A stretch of DNA of 64,000 bases from positions 1 to 64,000 of IMG/VR virus record IMGVR_UViG_3300037454_001182; one strand, given 5' to 3'. This DNA is from a virus (Duplodnaviria; Caudoviricetes). The position numbers and the translations under genes were made by a program. Below, one piece after another: positions 3,862-62,368 of this stretch. The notes beneath the pieces were generated by a model, which had not been told where the DNA came from, did not search any database, and saw only the letters and a program-made list of their open reading frames with translations. Every line of letters starts with the position of its first letter. The stretch's first letter is position 1.

Positions 3862-5217
3862 TTATGTGAATTGATAACGTACCTTTCCTTGACCAAAGAA
3901 CTGCGGTGTGATGGTGGTGCCGAAAGGCAGCTTACCACTCTTTCGCAACTCATTGAGCCAGAACTTCTGTTCTGAATCATTTGTGAGATACTTGCACATA
4001 GTACCATCGTCTTTCTGGAACTGCACCACATAACGAGGGCCGTTCTGAGTAGGCACGTCTGGCTCAAAGTCAATGATTGTAATGTGAGTGTTTACGAGTG
4101 CGCGAAGATTCTCTGGATTTCCCTGTAAGATACGCTTTCCATCCTTACCTGTGAAGTTCACGCCCTCTGCTTGCTTTTGTTTCTTTAGTTCTGCAAATGA
4201 ATCCATGTTTTTACCAGTTAATTTCTTGTATAAGTGTTTTGCATCGCACCATTTAGCCATGCCTTTAAGACTGCCGATTATCTCCTGTCTGCGCTTGCGG
4301 CTCTTAATCTTAGCCAACTTACGAGCGGCTTTCTGCTTGGTTCTTTTCCTCAACCTCGCTTTCTTGCCATCGTACACATACCCCAGAAAGTCTATACCCT
4401 CCGAGATAGGCTTCACGCTTTCATTGGGTTTTATCTCCAGACCCACCTCGGCCACCTTTTCATGGATGATGTCGCGGATAATCCACAACTTTTCTTTCGT
4501 TGAGGCCAGTATCACCATATCATCGCAATAGCGGTAGTAATACTTTATACCCAACTCATCCTTGATGTAGTGGTCGAGGAAACTAAGGATGATATTGCCG
4601 TAGCACTGTGACGAGCGCAATCCGATAGACAAGCCCTTTGGCATCATGGTCACGAAATCATGGAGCATTGGCAGTAATATGGGGTCTTTGATGTAACTCT
4701 GTACCACACCCCACATCACATTCTGGTCTATGCTCTCAAAGAACTTGCGAATGTCACACTTGTAAAAGTATGCCGTACCCTCGCGGTCATTCTCGATGTC
4801 GTGTCTCATCTTCGCAAACAGCTTGTGCATGCCCCTACCAGGTATGCTTGCAGCCGATGTACGGATAACACTTGGGTAAATCTTATCTTCAACCACTCGC
4901 ATGATGGCATTGCAACCGATTCTGTCAGTCACACATGGGCTTTGAACGGTTCTCACCTTTGGCCCATCCTTGACTTCCATTTCCCGATAGCCTTTCACCC
5001 TAAACGTGCCATCTGCAATCTCCTTAGTCAGTCTGGCGATTACCTCTTCCCTGTGACTGCGATAGGTGGTGCGTCTGCCGGACAACACCGTTTTCTTTCC
5101 CTTGTGGGTAAAGGTACGCGGATTGTCTGGCAGTTGGTCAACCACCTCATCAAACGCCCTATCCATGTTAGCACGTTCAACAATCTTTGGAATCAGATAA
5201 CCGTATCTCTTTGGCAT
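3862..5217 (-). CDS. DGR reverse transcriptase with a fused C-terminal domain of about 114 aa
   Basis: KCDIRKFF, GLSIGLRSSQ (DGR-type IGxxxSQ), YRYCDD and IDFLGY motifs; adjacent TR/VR pair. Confidence 0.95.
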   Translation of the reverse strand: MPKRYGYLIPKIVERANMDRAFDEVVDQLPDNPRTFTHKGKKTVLSGRRTTYRSHREEVIARLTKEIADGTFRVKGYREMEVKDGPKVRTVQSPCVTDRIGCNAIMRVVEDKIYPSVIRTSAASIPGRGMHKLFAKMRHDIENDREGTAYFYKCDIRKFFESIDQNVMWGVVQSYIKDPILLPMLHDFVTMMPKGLSIGLRSSQCYGNIILSFLDHYIKDELGIKYYYRYCDDMVILASTKEKLWIIRDIIHEKVAEVGLEIKPNESVKPISEGIDFLGYVYDGKKARLRKRTKQKAARKLAKIKSRKRRQEIIGSLKGMAKWCDAKHLYKKLTGKNMDSFAELKKQKQAEGVNFTGKDGKRILQGNPENLRALVNTHITIIDFEPDVPTQNGPRYVVQFQKDDGTMCKYLTNDSEQKFWLNELRKSGKLPFGTTITPQFFGQGKVRYQFT

Positions 5218-5440
5218 GATAAAATAAGTTTCTTCTTCGTTCGTGCGGTCATAGCACTTTCGAGCATAATGCCTACTTGCCCATCATCGACCGCACCCTG
5301 TGATGTTCTGGCTTTCCGTGTTTCCACGCTGTTGCCAAGGTTCCAATCCCTCGCTGACTGTCATTGACTATCCCGTAGTCATTCACCGTAGCAACGATTA
5401 AACTTCCAGTGATTTCTCACCGTGAAGCAGAGTTGATTTA
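5218..5440 (-). other. Structured spacer between TR and RT (part of the DGR template RNA)
   Basis: Non-coding; 8-bp stem gtgcggtc(5243-5250)/gaccgcac(5289-5296); hairpin tgacta-tcccg-tagtca (5365-5381). Confidence 0.6.
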
Positions 5441-29327: not shown

Positions 29328-29399
29328 CTCTGGGTGCGAGGCTCGAACTCGCGACTTCCACTCTTTCAAGTGACGTTCTACCAACTGAACTAACCCAGA
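29328..29399 (-). tRNA. tRNA-like gene (Phe/GAA-like) with a non-canonical 6-nt anticodon loop and no encoded CCA
   Basis: Acceptor TCTGGGT/ACCCAGA; D arm GTTC-AGTTGGTA-GAAC; anticodon arm TCACT-TGAAAG-AGTGG; T arm GCGAG-TTCGAGC-CTCGC. Confidence 0.75.
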
Positions 29400-33489: not shown

Positions 33490-34239
33490 TTAGCCTTTGG
33501 CCAGTTCCTTGACCTCATCATCCGACATTACTTCTTCATCGTCCTTTTTGACCGTGCTGCCGGGCATCGCACCTGCTGGCTTACTGAGGGTTTCCAAACC
33601 CTTATCCAGACGGTCTTGATTCTCGGCTTCCAAATCGGCCTCAACCTCATCGAGGAAATCTTCAAAATCCTCTTCGGTCTTGAACGACATACGAGCGAAA
33701 GACTTCATCACGCGCTCACCGTACTTGCCAGTGTCTTTGACAATAGCCTCCAGACGTGCTTTGCGGCTATCGGCAGTCTTACCACTCTTCAATTCCTCAA
33801 CCTGCCCTTTGAGGCTGTTGATGGTCTCAGTCAGTGGAGAGAGAGCCTTGGCGAGTTGTGCAGCGAGGGAATCATCCTCACCCTTTCCACTCTTGCCTTT
33901 CTTTGAAGATGGACTCTTACGACCCTTTGGAGTGACTGGCTCATCGTCTTGGTCGTCATCATCGTCATCATCATCATCATCGTCAGCATCGAGCGAATCT
34001 TTGTACTGTTGGAAACGGCGGTCTGCGGCAGATTGAGCGAACTGTAACACGTCAATGGCGGCATTAACCTCTTCGTCAATGGCTTTTGTTACATCTTCGT
34101 CACTGGCATCATCTTCGAGGTCAAGTTTATCGGCAACTTTGGCGGCGATACCCTTAATCTCCTTACGGCTGAACCCGAGCGCCTTAATTTCCTTTCTCGT
34201 TTTCAGCACTTCCAGAACTTTTCTAAAATGTCTGTTCAT
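33490..34239 (-). CDS. Capsid scaffolding protein (putative)
   Basis: Acidic helical protein with a poly-Asp tract, upstream of the capsid genes. Confidence 0.65.
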   Translation of the reverse strand: MNRHFRKVLEVLKTRKEIKALGFSRKEIKGIAAKVADKLDLEDDASDEDVTKAIDEEVNAAIDVLQFAQSAADRRFQQYKDSLDADDDDDDDDDDDQDDEPVTPKGRKSPSSKKGKSGKGEDDSLAAQLAKALSPLTETINSLKGQVEELKSGKTADSRKARLEAIVKDTGKYGERVMKSFARMSFKTEEDFEDFLDEVEADLEAENQDRLDKGLETLSKPAGAMPGSTVKKDDEEVMSDDEVKELAKG

Positions 34240-34262
34240 TGTTTTACGGATTTTGGTTTGTT

Positions 34263-34369
34263 AAAAATGGTCTGCGAGTGTGATACAGGCAGACCATCAT
34301 CAGAACCACATCGTAAGAGCAATGTTTTAATCCGAACAGTTCTGTCACGTGCATCTTCACACGCTTTCG
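34263..34369 (-). ncRNA. Candidate sRNA / attenuator leader (sRNA-2) carrying CAUUGCUCUUA
   Basis: Promoter at 34374-34404; terminator-like stem atggtctgc(34267-34275)/gcagaccat(34289-34297) plus U5; seed at 34314-34324. Confidence 0.55.
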
Positions 34370-34373
34370 GTCG

Positions 34374-34406
34374 CAAAGGTACTCAAATTTATTTGAATAA
34401 CAAATA
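34374..34406 (-). promoter_or_regulatory. Late-type promoter (TTTG-N19-TACCTTTG) overlapping a 17-bp operator
   Basis: Bacteroidetes -33/-7 consensus; TATTTGAATAACAAATA at 34390-34406. Confidence 0.75.
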
Positions 34407-34490
34407 ATTTTGTGATTTTTTTGCTAAAAAGTGAGGGTATTCGACAACTTTTGCTGCCAAACACCCTCTGGATGCAATGAAAACAGATAT

Positions 34491-34507
34491 TATTTGTTAT
34501 TCAAATA
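34491..34507. promoter_or_regulatory. Inverted copy of the 17-bp operator
   Basis: TATTTGTTATTCAAATA is the exact reverse complement of 34390-34406. Confidence 0.65.
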
Positions 34508-34686
34508 TCTTCATCCTCATCTTCTGGCTCATCCAAATCTTCGATGTAGCCATCATCGACCAGGACGGAATATAAATCCTGTTTTGCGTTCACGGAAATT
34601 GCATTGAAAACAACGTCCGCAACCTCTTCACTGGCATTCTCATAGAGCCAGTTATATACTGCTTGCTCCTTGGCTTTCGTGAACAT
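34501..34686 (-). CDS. Small acidic hypothetical protein
   Basis: 61-aa ORF at the end of an early-type cassette. Confidence 0.55.
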   Translation of the reverse strand: MFTKAKEQAVYNWLYENASEEVADVVFNAISVNAKQDLYSVLVDDGYIEDLDEPEDEDEDI

Positions 34687-35990: not shown

Positions 35991-36072
35991 TTCTATACTG
36001 CAAAGATAGCGTATTTTTCTGAATTATCAAAACGGAAACTCGTTTATTTTCAGCGACTTAACTCTGTTTAAC
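35991..36072 (-). promoter_or_regulatory. Early-type repeated promoter P1
   Basis: -7 TATCTTTG at 36001-36008, -33 TTTG, variant upstream box at 36058-36072. Confidence 0.75.
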
Positions 36073-37028: not shown

Positions 37029-38750
37029 TTATTTTGGATAACCAATATATTCTTTCATGTATTTTACTTGTTTCCTGTTCTCGAAGTCTAAAAAGCCCTG
37101 CCAGTGTTCACCTTTCAGCAACTTTTCACCATACGGCATATTAGCCAACAGGTTCATCGGGAACGATTCAGAACCTCTGCCATTGACAAGCGACATGGCT
37201 TCCTCGTATTCCTCTCTGGTGATTCTTGCAGAACTGACAGCCCTTTGGAGTAGATTCTTCACCTCGGATTGAGTGGCACAGAATCCATACTTTGCCCACG
37301 CATAGCCACCGACATCAGCATTAGCCTTTACGTTCACTCTGGCAACCCTCATATCGCCATACTCTGCGAACAGATTGCGGAATATCTCTTTTGAGATACC
37401 TTTGCCCTGCAACTCTTTAGGCAGAAAGAATCTGGAGTGATTCACCTCAACGCCTCTGTCTGTATGTCTGAAATCACGCACCACCTCAACACGACCGCCA
37501 CCCTCAACAACACCGTTATAGGTCATGGCAGCATTGCCATTCTTGAATATGGTAACAGACTTGTCTTTCCAGTAGATGTCTGCGCTATCACCTATCACGG
37601 TCATAGCCTCATCGAATCTGGGTAGGTTGTACCCTCTCAGTGCGGAACCATTGTAGGCTTTAGCGGTGAACCTGCCAAAGTTTGGCAACTGGCCAATATC
37701 ATCTTCTGTAATCTGCCAGTCGGACGGTTTGAGCGCACGATCAATCTGTCTGATATTATCTCGTACCCAATATGGGGACGTACCACGGCTTTGTGCTGTT
37801 TCAATCTTGGTCTGGTTGTCTCGCACATAGTCTTTGAATGATTCTGGCAGTTCCGTTACCTGTTGCTCTTCTGCGGTGGTCTCACCCTCGCGCATCTTCC
37901 AGTAATCATCCTCACTCATTATGATGGGAACAACATAACACAAATCATTGGGGTGCCATCCAGTCCAGACAAAATCTTTCGGGTACTTACCTGCAAGCAT
38001 ATCACATATATCTGGCTTCGGATGGGAGCCGGACAACTTGACCTCATATCCAGTGATGAAGTCAAACTGCTGCCACCTCGTTTGCTCGGCACTACGATAG
38101 GCCATATTGATTTCAGAACGAGCCAGACGGAGTGACCTATACTCACAGTCGGCACAATCGACAGCATGGCCGTACTTCTCTTCATAGTCAGCCTTTAGGG
38201 TGTCAAAGTCATTCAGATACTTACTCAAACGCTTGCTCAGAGTGACAGCACTCATACCCTTTTCAATGGCTGACGATATGGCATACTCCATTTCTTGGAC
38301 GTAGTTCTCTGACTGGTTCCAGATTTTGGCCGACAGGTTCATACCATGCTCAGTGCGGTTCTGGAATGCTCGGAGCGCATCACTATTCGATTGGAAGTAC
38401 ACCCTTTGCTGCTGACCGTCTATCTGTGCATCGTAATACTTCAAGACTTTCTTTGCCAACAAATCTTGCATTATATTACTCTGCTTCCACTCTGCCGATG
38501 TGCCGGAATAGATGAGGCCGCGCATCTGGCCGAAAAACTCAGACTTCAAATCCTCGACCATCTGAGCCACGTCTGGATAGTCAGCAAAGAGGAACGCTGC
38601 CGAACCATCATAGGCCGTAGCCTCAACGATTCTGGCAGTCTGGAGGCACAACTCATCATAAATGCTTTGAACCCTCGCCATGTATTGAGATAAACGAGAG
38701 TTCAAAGCATTGTACGCTTTCTTCTGGTTGGGTGTCTTTGGCTTTCCCAT
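37029..38750 (-). CDS. Head morphogenesis protein (SPP1 gp7/MuF-like) with a C-terminal GNAT-like extension
   Basis: LRLARSEINMAY and WTGWHPNDLC MuF motifs; C-terminal LQGKGIS...VGGYAWAKYGF. Confidence 0.75.
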   Translation of the reverse strand: MGKPKTPNQKKAYNALNSRLSQYMARVQSIYDELCLQTARIVEATAYDGSAAFLFADYPDVAQMVEDLKSEFFGQMRGLIYSGTSAEWKQSNIMQDLLAKKVLKYYDAQIDGQQQRVYFQSNSDALRAFQNRTEHGMNLSAKIWNQSENYVQEMEYAISSAIEKGMSAVTLSKRLSKYLNDFDTLKADYEEKYGHAVDCADCEYRSLRLARSEINMAYRSAEQTRWQQFDFITGYEVKLSGSHPKPDICDMLAGKYPKDFVWTGWHPNDLCYVVPIIMSEDDYWKMREGETTAEEQQVTELPESFKDYVRDNQTKIETAQSRGTSPYWVRDNIRQIDRALKPSDWQITEDDIGQLPNFGRFTAKAYNGSALRGYNLPRFDEAMTVIGDSADIYWKDKSVTIFKNGNAAMTYNGVVEGGGRVEVVRDFRHTDRGVEVNHSRFFLPKELQGKGISKEIFRNLFAEYGDMRVARVNVKANADVGGYAWAKYGFCATQSEVKNLLQRAVSSARITREEYEEAMSLVNGRGSESFPMNLLANMPYGEKLLKGEHWQGFLDFENRKQVKYMKEYIGYPK

Positions 38751-41792: not shown

Positions 41793-41824
41793 CAAAGGTA
41801 CACAATTTATTTGAATAACAAATA
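41793..41824 (-). promoter_or_regulatory. Late-type promoter of the portal block with 17-bp operator
   Basis: TACCTTTG at 41793-41800; TATTTGAATAACAAATA at 41808-41824. Confidence 0.75.
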
Positions 41825-41845
41825 AAATTAACTATAAAAATCAAT

Positions 41846-43149: not shown

Positions 43150-43231
43150 TTCTATACTGCAAAGATAACCATTTTTTCTGAATTATCAAAACCGATTGAA
43201 CTCTATTTTTAACCGACCAACTCTTTTTAAC
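43150..43231 (-). promoter_or_regulatory. Early-type repeated promoter P3
   Basis: -7 box at 43160-43167; upstream box CCAACTCTTTTTAAC at 43217-43231. Confidence 0.75.
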
Positions 43232-44103: not shown

Positions 44104-44457
44104 TCATGCCTCCCCATATAAGCGGTTAATGAACTTTTCCAGATAGCACTCATCTTTCATTTCAGACAATGGCTTCGGATTGTGGCAGATGTCTCTCTCA
44201 ACACCGCAACCCCAACTATTCTTCAAGTTCTGGAGTTCGGTAAGGCTGAAATACCCATACTCACATTCTCCATACCCATTGACTACGATTCCAAAAGCCA
44301 GATTCTCTTTTAGGTCGGCTTCCAACACATACCAGGTATGCGCCCCACCAGTGAGGAAATACTTAACTACGCAAATGGCATTTTGCTTTTTGTCGCTCTG
44401 GGAGTACAGCGGAAATTTCGCTAACTCCTTTTCTACTTGTTTCGTGACTAATTTCAT
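44104..44457 (-). CDS. DUF2958-like protein
   Basis: KYFLTGGAHTWYVLE...EYGYFSLTEL...VERD. Confidence 0.7.
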   Translation of the reverse strand: MKLVTKQVEKELAKFPLYSQSDKKQNAICVVKYFLTGGAHTWYVLEADLKENLAFGIVVNGYGECEYGYFSLTELQNLKNSWGCGVERDICHNPKPLSEMKDECYLEKFINRLYGEA

Positions 44458-44800: not shown

Positions 44801-44878
44801 GTACTACAAAGATAGCGTTTTTTTCTGAATTATCAAAACGAATGAACCTTTATTTTCAACTGACCAACTCTTTTTAAC
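44801..44878 (-). promoter_or_regulatory. Early-type repeated promoter P4
   Basis: -7 box at 44807-44814; upstream box at 44864-44878. Confidence 0.75.
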
Positions 44879-46707: not shown

Positions 46708-46790
46708 TTTCTATACTGCAAAGATAGCGATTTTTTCTGAATTATCAAAACGGAAAACTCTTTATTTTCGCCTTGCCAACTCTTTTTAAC
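46708..46790 (-). promoter_or_regulatory. Early-type repeated promoter P5
   Basis: -7 box at 46719-46726; upstream box at 46776-46790. Confidence 0.75.
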
Positions 46791-46794
46791 CAAT

Positions 46795-46866
46795 AAAAAA
46801 GGTGTGTCCTAACTTCACAGTCGAGACACACTAAGAGCAATGAAATCGTCAAAAGAAACGATTTCG
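46795..46866 (-). ncRNA. Candidate antisense sRNA (sRNA-1), about 70 nt
   Basis: -7 TAATTTTG at 46871-46878; 8-bp hairpin 46842-46865; single-stranded AUUGCUCUUA; terminator hairpin 46802-46831 with a GUGA loop and U6. Confidence 0.65.
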
Positions 46867-46908
46867 GCTGCAAAATTACAAAATAATATTCAAACCATCT
46901 AATTTTTG

Positions 46909-51616: not shown

Positions 51617-51660
51617 CAAAGGTACAAAAATTTCTCTTAATTCTATTTGAATAACAAATA
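51617..51660 (-). promoter_or_regulatory. Late-type promoter of the ParB-terminase operon with 17-bp operator
   Basis: TACCTTTG at 51617-51624; TATTTGAATAACAAATA at 51644-51660. Confidence 0.65.
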
Positions 51661-51694
51661 AATTTGCCAATTTTAGCGTGATAGTGTACTCTTT

Positions 51695-56120: not shown

Positions 56121-56155
56121 TGCTCTTTGATTTTAATTGTTATTATTTCATCTTT

Positions 56156-56234
56156 TGTACTACAAAGATAGCGTTTTTTTCTGAAATATCAAAACCGAAT
56201 AGCAATTATTTTCAGCCGACCAACTCTTTTTAAC
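56156..56234 (-). promoter_or_regulatory. Early-type repeated promoter P6
   Basis: -7 box at 56163-56170; upstream box at 56220-56234. Confidence 0.75.
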
Positions 56235-58185: not shown

Positions 58186-58404
58186 TCATTCATGGCCCAC
58201 CTCCTTTTCTGTGTCTGAATGGTTACACTTCACCTGTTTTGGATAATCTATGAGGTCACCGAAATGCGGACAGATACGACAGCCTCCAGAACCTACCTTG
58301 ATAGGATTTCCGCTTGGATGCTTCTGGCCGTAAGGGCATGGGGTGATACACTTATCGGGTCTGTTTGCTGACAGGCTGATAGTCTCGTATAATAGAATCT
58401 TCAT
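58186..58404 (-). CDS. Small Cys-rich protein
   Basis: 72 aa; CITPCPY...CRICPHF. Confidence 0.5.
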   Translation of the reverse strand: MKILLYETISLSANRPDKCITPCPYGQKHPSGNPIKVGSGGCRICPHFGDLIDYPKQVKCNHSDTEKEVGHE

Positions 58405-62285: not shown

Positions 62286-62368
62286 TTTCTATACTGCAAA
62301 GATAGCGATTTTTTCTGAATTATCAAAACGGAATGACTATTATTTTTGCCTTGCCAACTCTTTTTAAC
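62286..62368 (-). promoter_or_regulatory. Early-type repeated promoter P7
   Basis: -7 box at 62297-62304; upstream box at 62354-62368. Confidence 0.75.

Follow-up and report, generated by a model that had tools for sequence, protein, structure and literature searches.

The stretch of DNA analysed here (the window) comprises 64,000 nucleotides and corresponds to the first 64 kb of a 79,203-bp provirus record of IMG/VR. The host order of the prophage is Bacteroidales, all its genes are located on the - strand, and its promoters are of the Bacteroidetes type (TTTG ... TAnnTTTG). Following the - strand from 79 kb to 34.5 kb, the prophage contains an early/accessory/replication region that encodes a LuxR-type HTH protein, an AAA_24 protein, a helicase, NinG, and several DNA methylases, and within which the portal gene and a head-morphogenesis gene are also located. 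The scaffold-like gene opens the next operon and is followed downstream by a 135-aa gene, the gene for the major head protein (33033-31450), and tail genes. A strong intrinsic terminator ends the upstream unit and insulates the scaffold/capsid transcription unit. These elements are located as follows:

41765-40302, - strand: portal gene, within the early/accessory/replication span
38750-37029, - strand: head-morphogenesis gene (SPP1 gp7-like), within the same span
34433-34468, - strand: strong intrinsic terminator, with a 16-bp stem and a U-run
33490-34239, - strand: scaffold-like gene, gene 1 of the operon (249 aa, acidic, phrog_5824; ATG at 34239)

The head-morphogenesis protein (37029-38750, - strand) has a further PHROG match, to an entry annotated Bxa ADP-ribosyltransferase (E 1.7e-64). 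No match to GenBank phages was obtained by megablast with the 31-38 kb region. In the window, nothing reached the Rfam gathering score except a tRNA gene at 29328-29399 (- strand, 51.3 bits), which lies between the head and tail gene blocks, and an RT-3 RNA at 5245-5399 (- strand, 77.4 bits, E 2e-16), which adjoins a 451-aa ORF (3862-5217). When positions 34150-34550 were searched against Rfam at E-values up to 10, only noise was returned, with no match to the C4 antisense RNA, to FopS/GibS, or to any other family.

The first-pass annotation of this DNA had described a promoter (TTTG-N19-TACCTTTG) overlapped by a 17-bp operator upstream of the scaffold gene, and both were found where it had placed them:

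34404-34401, - strand: -33 element TTTG, inside the 17-bp near-palindromic operator
34391-34407, - strand: operator, the 17-mer TTATTTGTTATTCAAAT, a near-palindrome covering the -33 TTTG
34374-34381, - strand: -7 box TACCTTTG, of the Bacteroidetes TAnnTTTG type, 19 nt 3' of the TTTG
34490-34506, + strand: inverted operator copy, 99 bp upstream of the promoter-proximal copy
41809-41825, 51645-51661, and genome 67068-67084, - strand: further exact operator copies, 5' of three other promoters

A -7 box is kept at the same position in relatives, and the leader has, as predicted from these elements, its own promoter and a defined 5' end. The operator has ATTTG/CAAAT half-sites, the 17-mer is located at or just 5' of the -33 element in four TAnnTTTG promoters, and variant palindromes occupy the matching place in relatives. 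The late-promoter label given earlier cannot be taken as established, as operators of this class are also found at the portal promoter and at two promoters of the early/replication region. Genome positions 75405-74857 encode a LuxR/GerE-type HTH protein.

From this promoter, a leader containing three predicted hairpins would be transcribed:

34263-34371, - strand: leader RNA of approximately 105 to 110 nt, with its inferred start just past the -7 box and its last residues in the U-run (model R1)
34347-34364, - strand: P1, the 5'-proximal hairpin (GCGUGUG-AAGA-UGCACGU), the most conserved element, present even in clades with a seed-less leader
34301-34344, - strand: P2 domain, with arms CAGAAC (34344-34339) and GUUCUG (34306-34301) enclosing an apical region of approximately 32 nt
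34314-34324, - strand: seed CAUUGCUCUUA, inside P2, the exact complement of the start-site tag UAAGAGCAAUG
34263-34297, - strand: P3, a terminator-like hairpin with an outer stem of 9 to 10 bp and a short inner helix, followed by U5 ending at 34263

The first-pass annotation gave the right positions for all three hairpins, for the U5, and for the exact antisense 11-mer, and its description of a non-coding, promoter-headed, structured leader ending in a terminator-like hairpin is supported. The apical region of P2 is variable in length and sequence, and in the predicted minimum free energy fold ACAUUG pairs locally with CGAUGU around a loop that contains CUCUUA. The outer arms of P3, AUGGUCUGC (34297-34289) and GCAGACCAU (34275-34267), pair with each other; a simple terminator scan did not list this hairpin because its loop is 13 nt long and contains an inner helix of 2 to 4 bp. 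The U-run ends 24 nt upstream of the scaffold ATG, which places a terminator-like element between the promoter and the structural genes, and we infer that some transcripts would end there and accumulate as a short RNA. No promoter was found between P3 and the scaffold ATG, and read-through is therefore obligatory for scaffold expression. No other copies of P1 or P3 were found in the genome, and a reading of the two hairpins as nut-like sites was rejected on this ground. By eye, a possible anti-terminator pairing was noted between the 5' arm of P2 (CAGAAC) and GGUCUG of P3, with 5 of 6 positions matched. The suggestion that the leader is an attenuator sensing early-mRNA levels has so far gained no support, as no conserved alternative pairing was found when looked for by eye. 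A long-range pairing is predicted between UUCGGAUU of the leader (34330-34338) and the AAUCCG region (34244-34252) on the - strand, which might mask the scaffold start.

To place the leader among relatives, we used the capsid as query and obtained 80 viral loci and 16 loci from bacterial genomes (labelled L0xx or L1xx below; WIN is the window's own leader), the latter from Prevotella, Bacteroidaceae, Bacteroides, Parabacteroides, Alistipes, and others. At least 28 distinct relatives (prophages of Prevotella, Bacteroidaceae, Parabacteroides, and Alistipes) have the leader 5' of their scaffold gene, and the covariance model R1 gave exactly one strong match per related locus, always directly 5' of the scaffold gene. 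In the 28 distinct leaders, standard pairs occupy 97.6% of the pair cells of P1, P2, and P3, and compensatory changes occur in 7 of the 20 pairs, counts taken from an alignment fitted to R1, which favours the structure, and from related lineages, which are not independent events. Examples are changes from G-C to A-U in P1 (6 of the 28 leaders) and P3, and from U-A to C-G in P2 and P3. The pairing and covariation values were reached by none of 500 shuffles, slid-register controls were 20% to 52% paired, and MAFFT/RNAalifold applied to 19 leaders returned the same three helices. P3 covaries and its loop is long and interrupted; the U-run has 4 to 8 residues in most relatives and is absent or weak in L032/L097, L014, and L029. 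The alignment of capsid-operon leaders from related phages, a check proposed in the first-pass annotation, thus showed P1, P2, and P3 to be conserved and covarying and the seed to be retained as an island in many lineages. Literature searches for a Bacteroides or Prevotella phage sRNA of this kind, or for the leader element, found no description. We have very little doubt that the leader is a real, new, and conserved structured RNA. Two candidate reading frames were discarded: a leader peptide starting at the ATG of the P1 loop (this ATG is missing in 6 of the 28 leaders, and stops and frame vary by lineage) and a mini-ORF on the + strand at the seed (ATG TTT TAA), which is not conserved.

The sequence to which the seed is complementary is a tag, (T/A/C/G)AAGAGCA, that directly precedes the ATG of 20 genes in the window:

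35173-62276, - strand: span of the 20 tagged genes of the window

Four more exact copies are present beyond the window (genome 65491-74824). Among the tagged genes are those for a helicase and a Dam methylase, and the others mostly encode small proteins (MutS_I-like, YodL-like, DUF3560, DUF2958, and many without known family); tagged starts are found, e.g., at 44457, 50095, and 69924, and no structural gene from 34 kb down to 1 kb carries the tag. Some tagged genes come directly after an early promoter and others after a stop codon, which ties the tag to the start site rather than to the promoter. The complementarity of the seed grows to 12 nt against the four genes with a G before the tag. 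Exact copies of TAAGAGCAATG number 13 on the gene strand of the complete 79,203-bp record and 2 on the opposite strand (at 34314 and 46832), a reversed-pattern control gave no match, and with at most 1 mismatch there are 21 matches against 1.64 expected, a number reached by none of 100 shuffles. The earlier statement that only two antisense copies exist (34314-34324 and 46832-46842) is true for the whole 79-kb record; approximately 0.015 exact complements of the 11-mer are expected per strand of the window. The tag is nearly invariant across Prevotella, Bacteroidaceae, and Parabacteroides prophages that share only approximately 55% capsid identity (G001-G014), and near-complete genomes carry 10 to 17 tags on the gene strand versus 0 to 2 antisense copies, with a reversed control of 0 and once of 1.

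A second class of promoter, with the conserved upstream sequence ...AAAAAATCGCTATCTTTG(C/T)AGTA..., is found approximately 25 to 30 nt before several tagged genes:

36003-36030, 43162-43189, 44809-44836, 46721-46748, 56140-56170, and 62290-62320, - strand: sites of the second promoter class

Other genes of the same phage have GGAGG-like sites (e.g., at 58404, 58193, and 39041). The tag was also considered as an enhancer pairing with 16S rRNA, and this candidate was rejected as no exact complement of 6 nt or more is present in the 16S rRNA of a Prevotella or a Parabacteroides host; with G-U pairs allowed, the best matches are 9 nt for one of these hosts and 7 nt for the other.

The second antisense copy belongs to a separate unit that bears the same seed and that we call sRNA-1:

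46790-46878, - strand: sRNA-1, with a -7 box, a 5' hairpin, CAUUGCUCUUA in single-stranded form, and a terminator with a GUGA cap, followed by U6

Homologues of sRNA-1 were found at L032:1411-1496, L043:2048-2133, and L070:2621-2706 and in L111-L114. Their seed CAUUGCUCUU is invariant while both stems covary, and a tagged gene usually follows 130 to 390 nt downstream of the unit. All clades examined have the unit, including clades with a seed-less leader. With its order of promoter, hairpin, seed, and terminator, sRNA-1 is a stronger sRNA candidate than the leader. Its presence in every clade makes anti-tag pairing a trait of the family, and this in turn raises the prior that the seed of the leader is used in the same way. 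A 20-codon frame on the + strand at 46840 was rejected because it is not conserved, the sRNA-1 homologue of the L043 clade giving only 2 codons.

Within leaders whose P2 has the AGAAC/GUUCU form, the apical loop contains a conserved island, CAUUGCUC, amid variable flanks. The CATTGCTC columns hold more information than the loop columns on either side, and the spacer between the island and a conserved TCGGAA ranges from 0 to 8 nt. An exact copy of the island is present in WIN, L012, L016, L019-L024, L023, L029, L039-L041, L043-L063, L092, L100, and L106; the island has one mismatch in L013, L014, L026/27, L034, and L048 and is more degraded in L030 and in L032/L097 (the latter truncated). Its complementarity to the family-wide tag, (T/A)AAGAGCA-AUG, is 9 to 15 nt long and shifts in register by lineage, always covering the AUG:

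WIN: 12 nt, -9 to +3
L100 (Prevotella): 15 nt, -8 to +7
L021 and L024: 11 nt each
L043: 11 nt
L039: 9 nt
L106 (Parabacteroides): 10 nt, in the loop of a 6-bp hairpin

Of 200 shuffles, no more than 5 reach the observed length in each of 11 out of 17 testable lineages, and in these the island is the longest complementarity of the leader to any tagged start. The antisense match to the shared start tag noted in the first-pass annotation is thus not a chance occurrence, being a conserved island in a variable loop, distant relatives included. A complementarity that shifts in register is what pairing between an RNA and its targets is expected to produce, and we think it probable, short of being confident, that the island is maintained for pairing with the start-site tag.

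The seed is not a constant part of the leader and is less conserved than P1 and P3. It is degraded in L014, L026/27, L030, and L034 and truncated in L032/L097. Overall, it is degraded or absent in 6 of the 17 testable lineages, all of which keep P1 and P3, and the core function of the leader is therefore independent of the seed, which is an optional addition. The seed is absent from P2 in L065-L091, L031/35/42/64, and L102 (an Alistipes prophage), where P1 and a P3-type hairpin are kept. L102 has no tagged genes in the 6 kb upstream of the capsid gene, and L031/L033 have almost no tags in the whole record. Several phages in which the leader seed is degraded or absent keep many tagged genes; L035, L042, and L064, by contrast, have 11 to 13 tags. 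In the leaders of L065 (1725-1877) and L066-L091, in which the seed is gone from P2, the loop of P3 (CUACAUUGCUAC) holds CAUUGCU, the complement of AGCAAUG; the match of this 7-mer is not better than that of shuffles.

In the predicted ensembles of most lineages, the seed is largely unpaired; its unpaired probability is 0.76 to 0.96 in L013, L019, L039, L040, L043, L092, and L106 (0.96 in L106). The seed of WIN is predicted to be half paired in the local hairpin, with an unpaired probability of 0.53, and the probability is lower still in L100, L020, and L024. The leader thus carries a conserved seed that is complementary to several mRNAs and predicted to be accessible, though in WIN only to the extent of 0.53, and that is lost in some clades. 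RNAduplex on full-length RNAs gave loopy duplexes that did not separate tagged from untagged genes and was replaced by the net cofold energy, that is, the energy of the complex minus those of the two separate folds, calculated for the leader in its terminated form with start windows of 50 nt. Its median was -10.1 kcal/mol for tagged genes versus -3.2 kcal/mol for 92 other genes, of which 1 reached the tagged median. For sRNA-1, the medians were -14.8 kcal/mol (tagged) and -4.8 kcal/mol (others).

These observations are consistent with a leader of dual function, part attenuator or stabiliser in cis and part anti-start-site RNA in trans, a reading that we judge about equally likely to be right or wrong. 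Transcription would start a few bases past the host-type promoter that carries the 17-bp operator, and the apical loop of P2 would display CAUUGCUC(UUA). Some polymerases would stop at P3, giving a small RNA capped by the 5' hairpin, and the remaining ones would read through into scaffold and capsid, leaving the same element at the 5' end of the mRNA. In either form, the loop would pair across the AUG of the 20 to 30 phage genes tagged with (T/A)AAGAGCA-AUG and block the entry of ribosomes. Firing of the capsid promoter would in this way turn the tagged genes down, with the leader reinforcing the dedicated sRNA of the same seed at 46.8 kb. Because the read-through mRNA also carries the seed, full read-through would be compatible with pairing in trans. 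To the trans part, repression by the leader as a terminated RNA of approximately 105 nt or on the mRNA, we assign an even chance. Capsid transcription may also switch off 20 to 30 of the phage's own accessory and replication genes. A broader scheme, which we put forward tentatively and hold to be rather doubtful, is an RNA tag/anti-tag circuit: a near-invariant 10- to 11-nt tag on 20 to 30 genes would be read by a dedicated sRNA and by the capsid leader, so that switching on the capsid silences the tagged genes stoichiometrically, and tagged mRNAs could in turn, by opening P2, adjust the termination at P3.

The main rival is a purely cis role for the leader, which we consider possible but not probable. 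P1 would stabilise or mark the 5' end or bind a phage or host factor, P3 would be an attenuator or stabiliser gating the capsid genes, as in the lambda PR'-6S-tR' arrangement, and the island would be a site for a protein or a tertiary contact whose likeness to an anti-tag is historical. P1 and P3 are indeed the best conserved elements and persist in seed-less clades (L065-91, L102, and L032), read-through is obligatory for want of a promoter from P3 to the scaffold ATG, and every clade already has the dedicated sRNA for anti-tag function. However, a fixed protein site would not shift along the tag by lineage as the window of complementarity does, and the island fits the tag better than does any other part of the leader. 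Moreover, no Q-like, NusG-like, or RNA-chaperone gene was found among approximately 48 proteins scanned with Pfam or PHROGs, an incomplete scan outside which approximately 60 small ORFs lie.

A second form of cis action, in which the loop pairs with the start of the scaffold gene itself (AGCAAUG in most relatives) and thereby masks scaffold translation or sets its timing, appears unlikely. Many relatives have (A)AGCAATG at the scaffold start, which would allow 7 to 9 nt of cis pairing, and in the WIN clade CGGAUU, located 5' of the seed, is predicted to pair with AAUCCG just before the AUG, a pairing kept in L012 and L092. This pairing is absent outside the WIN clade, however, and in every lineage compared by eye the trans match is at least as long as the cis match; in WIN, L012, L013, and L016, no more than 4 to 5 nt match in cis versus 8 to 12 nt in trans. 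That the seed has no function, being a chance match or what is left of an inverted gene start or a + strand mini-gene, is very improbable: the 11-mer on the + strand does end in ATG, followed by TTT TAA, and reverse-strand genes starting with the tag exist in some relatives, but the + strand frame has only 2 codons and no promoter, the - strand frame from the P1-loop ATG is not conserved either, and the island is kept in lineages of approximately 55% capsid identity whose flanks have diverged.

The leader has no sequence kinship with any of the systems to which we compared the dual-function reading, and its sequence does not support membership of a known RNA family. IsrK of the Salmonella Gifsy-1 prophage is expressed from one promoter as a short RNA ending at an internal terminator and as a read-through mRNA; the short form pairs in trans and activates translation of its own read-through isoform (PMC4825925). 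The proposed leader resembles IsrK in having short terminated and read-through isoforms from one prophage promoter and in pairing in trans. It differs in that its proposed targets are 20 to 30 other, tagged genes and its effect is repression, and no sequence or Rfam relation links the two. In Bacteroides thetaiotaomicron, the sRNAs GibS and FopS repress by pairing with the translation initiation regions of many mRNAs; they are chromosomal, have a sigma-ABfr type promoter, a Rho-independent terminator, and a 5' single-stranded seed, and associate with RbpB (PMC11697453). Host order, promoter type, and, as proposed for the leader, pairing with start regions are common to both, whereas the leader is phage-encoded, unrelated in sequence, and has its seed in an apical loop. 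In Bacteroidales, translation initiation is atypical, with little use of Shine-Dalgarno sequences, and sRNA biology is young; the prophage family described here is often found in Prevotella, Bacteroides, and Parabacteroides of the gut and rumen. Relatives are carried by three cultured isolates, Prevotella sp. KH2C16 (L093), Prevotella vespertina A2879 (L094), and Parabacteroides faecalis AGMB00274 (L106); the leader seed is intact in L093 and L106 and degraded in L094.

Among the systems of other phages, the leader from the PR' promoter of lambda (6S RNA) ends at the terminator tR' right before the late structural genes, and read-through, which requires the Q protein and a qut site, is needed for capsid production. 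We know of no seed or targets of lambda 6S RNA. The order of promoter, short leader with a terminator (in the prophage, a terminator-like hairpin), and structural genes directly after is the same in both phages, whereas no Q-like gene was found among the approximately 48 prophage proteins scanned. The c4 RNA of P1/P7 and the CI RNA of P4 are phage antisense RNAs that are cut or terminated from an operon leader and whose loops pair with repeated complementary sites on the mRNA; c4, for which a family (C4) exists in Rfam, covers the ribosome-binding site. Each acts on one operon with two sites, and both are immunity factors. The leader shares with them its derivation from the 5' end of a phage operon and a loop complementary to repeated sites, and differs in that its target would be a start-site tag across the early/accessory region and in having no Rfam match at E-values up to 10. 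Finally, RegA of T4 is a single phage protein whose targets are the start regions of many early mRNAs, the translation of which it shuts off later in infection. In the circuit proposed here, the recogniser would instead be an RNA and the targets would carry a near-identical tag of 10 to 11 nt, and, if this is true, RNA pairing alone lets the phage couple late-gene transcription to shutting off the tagged set of genes. Read conservatively, the leader is still a new and widespread structured RNA motif, absent from Rfam, that heads the capsid operon.
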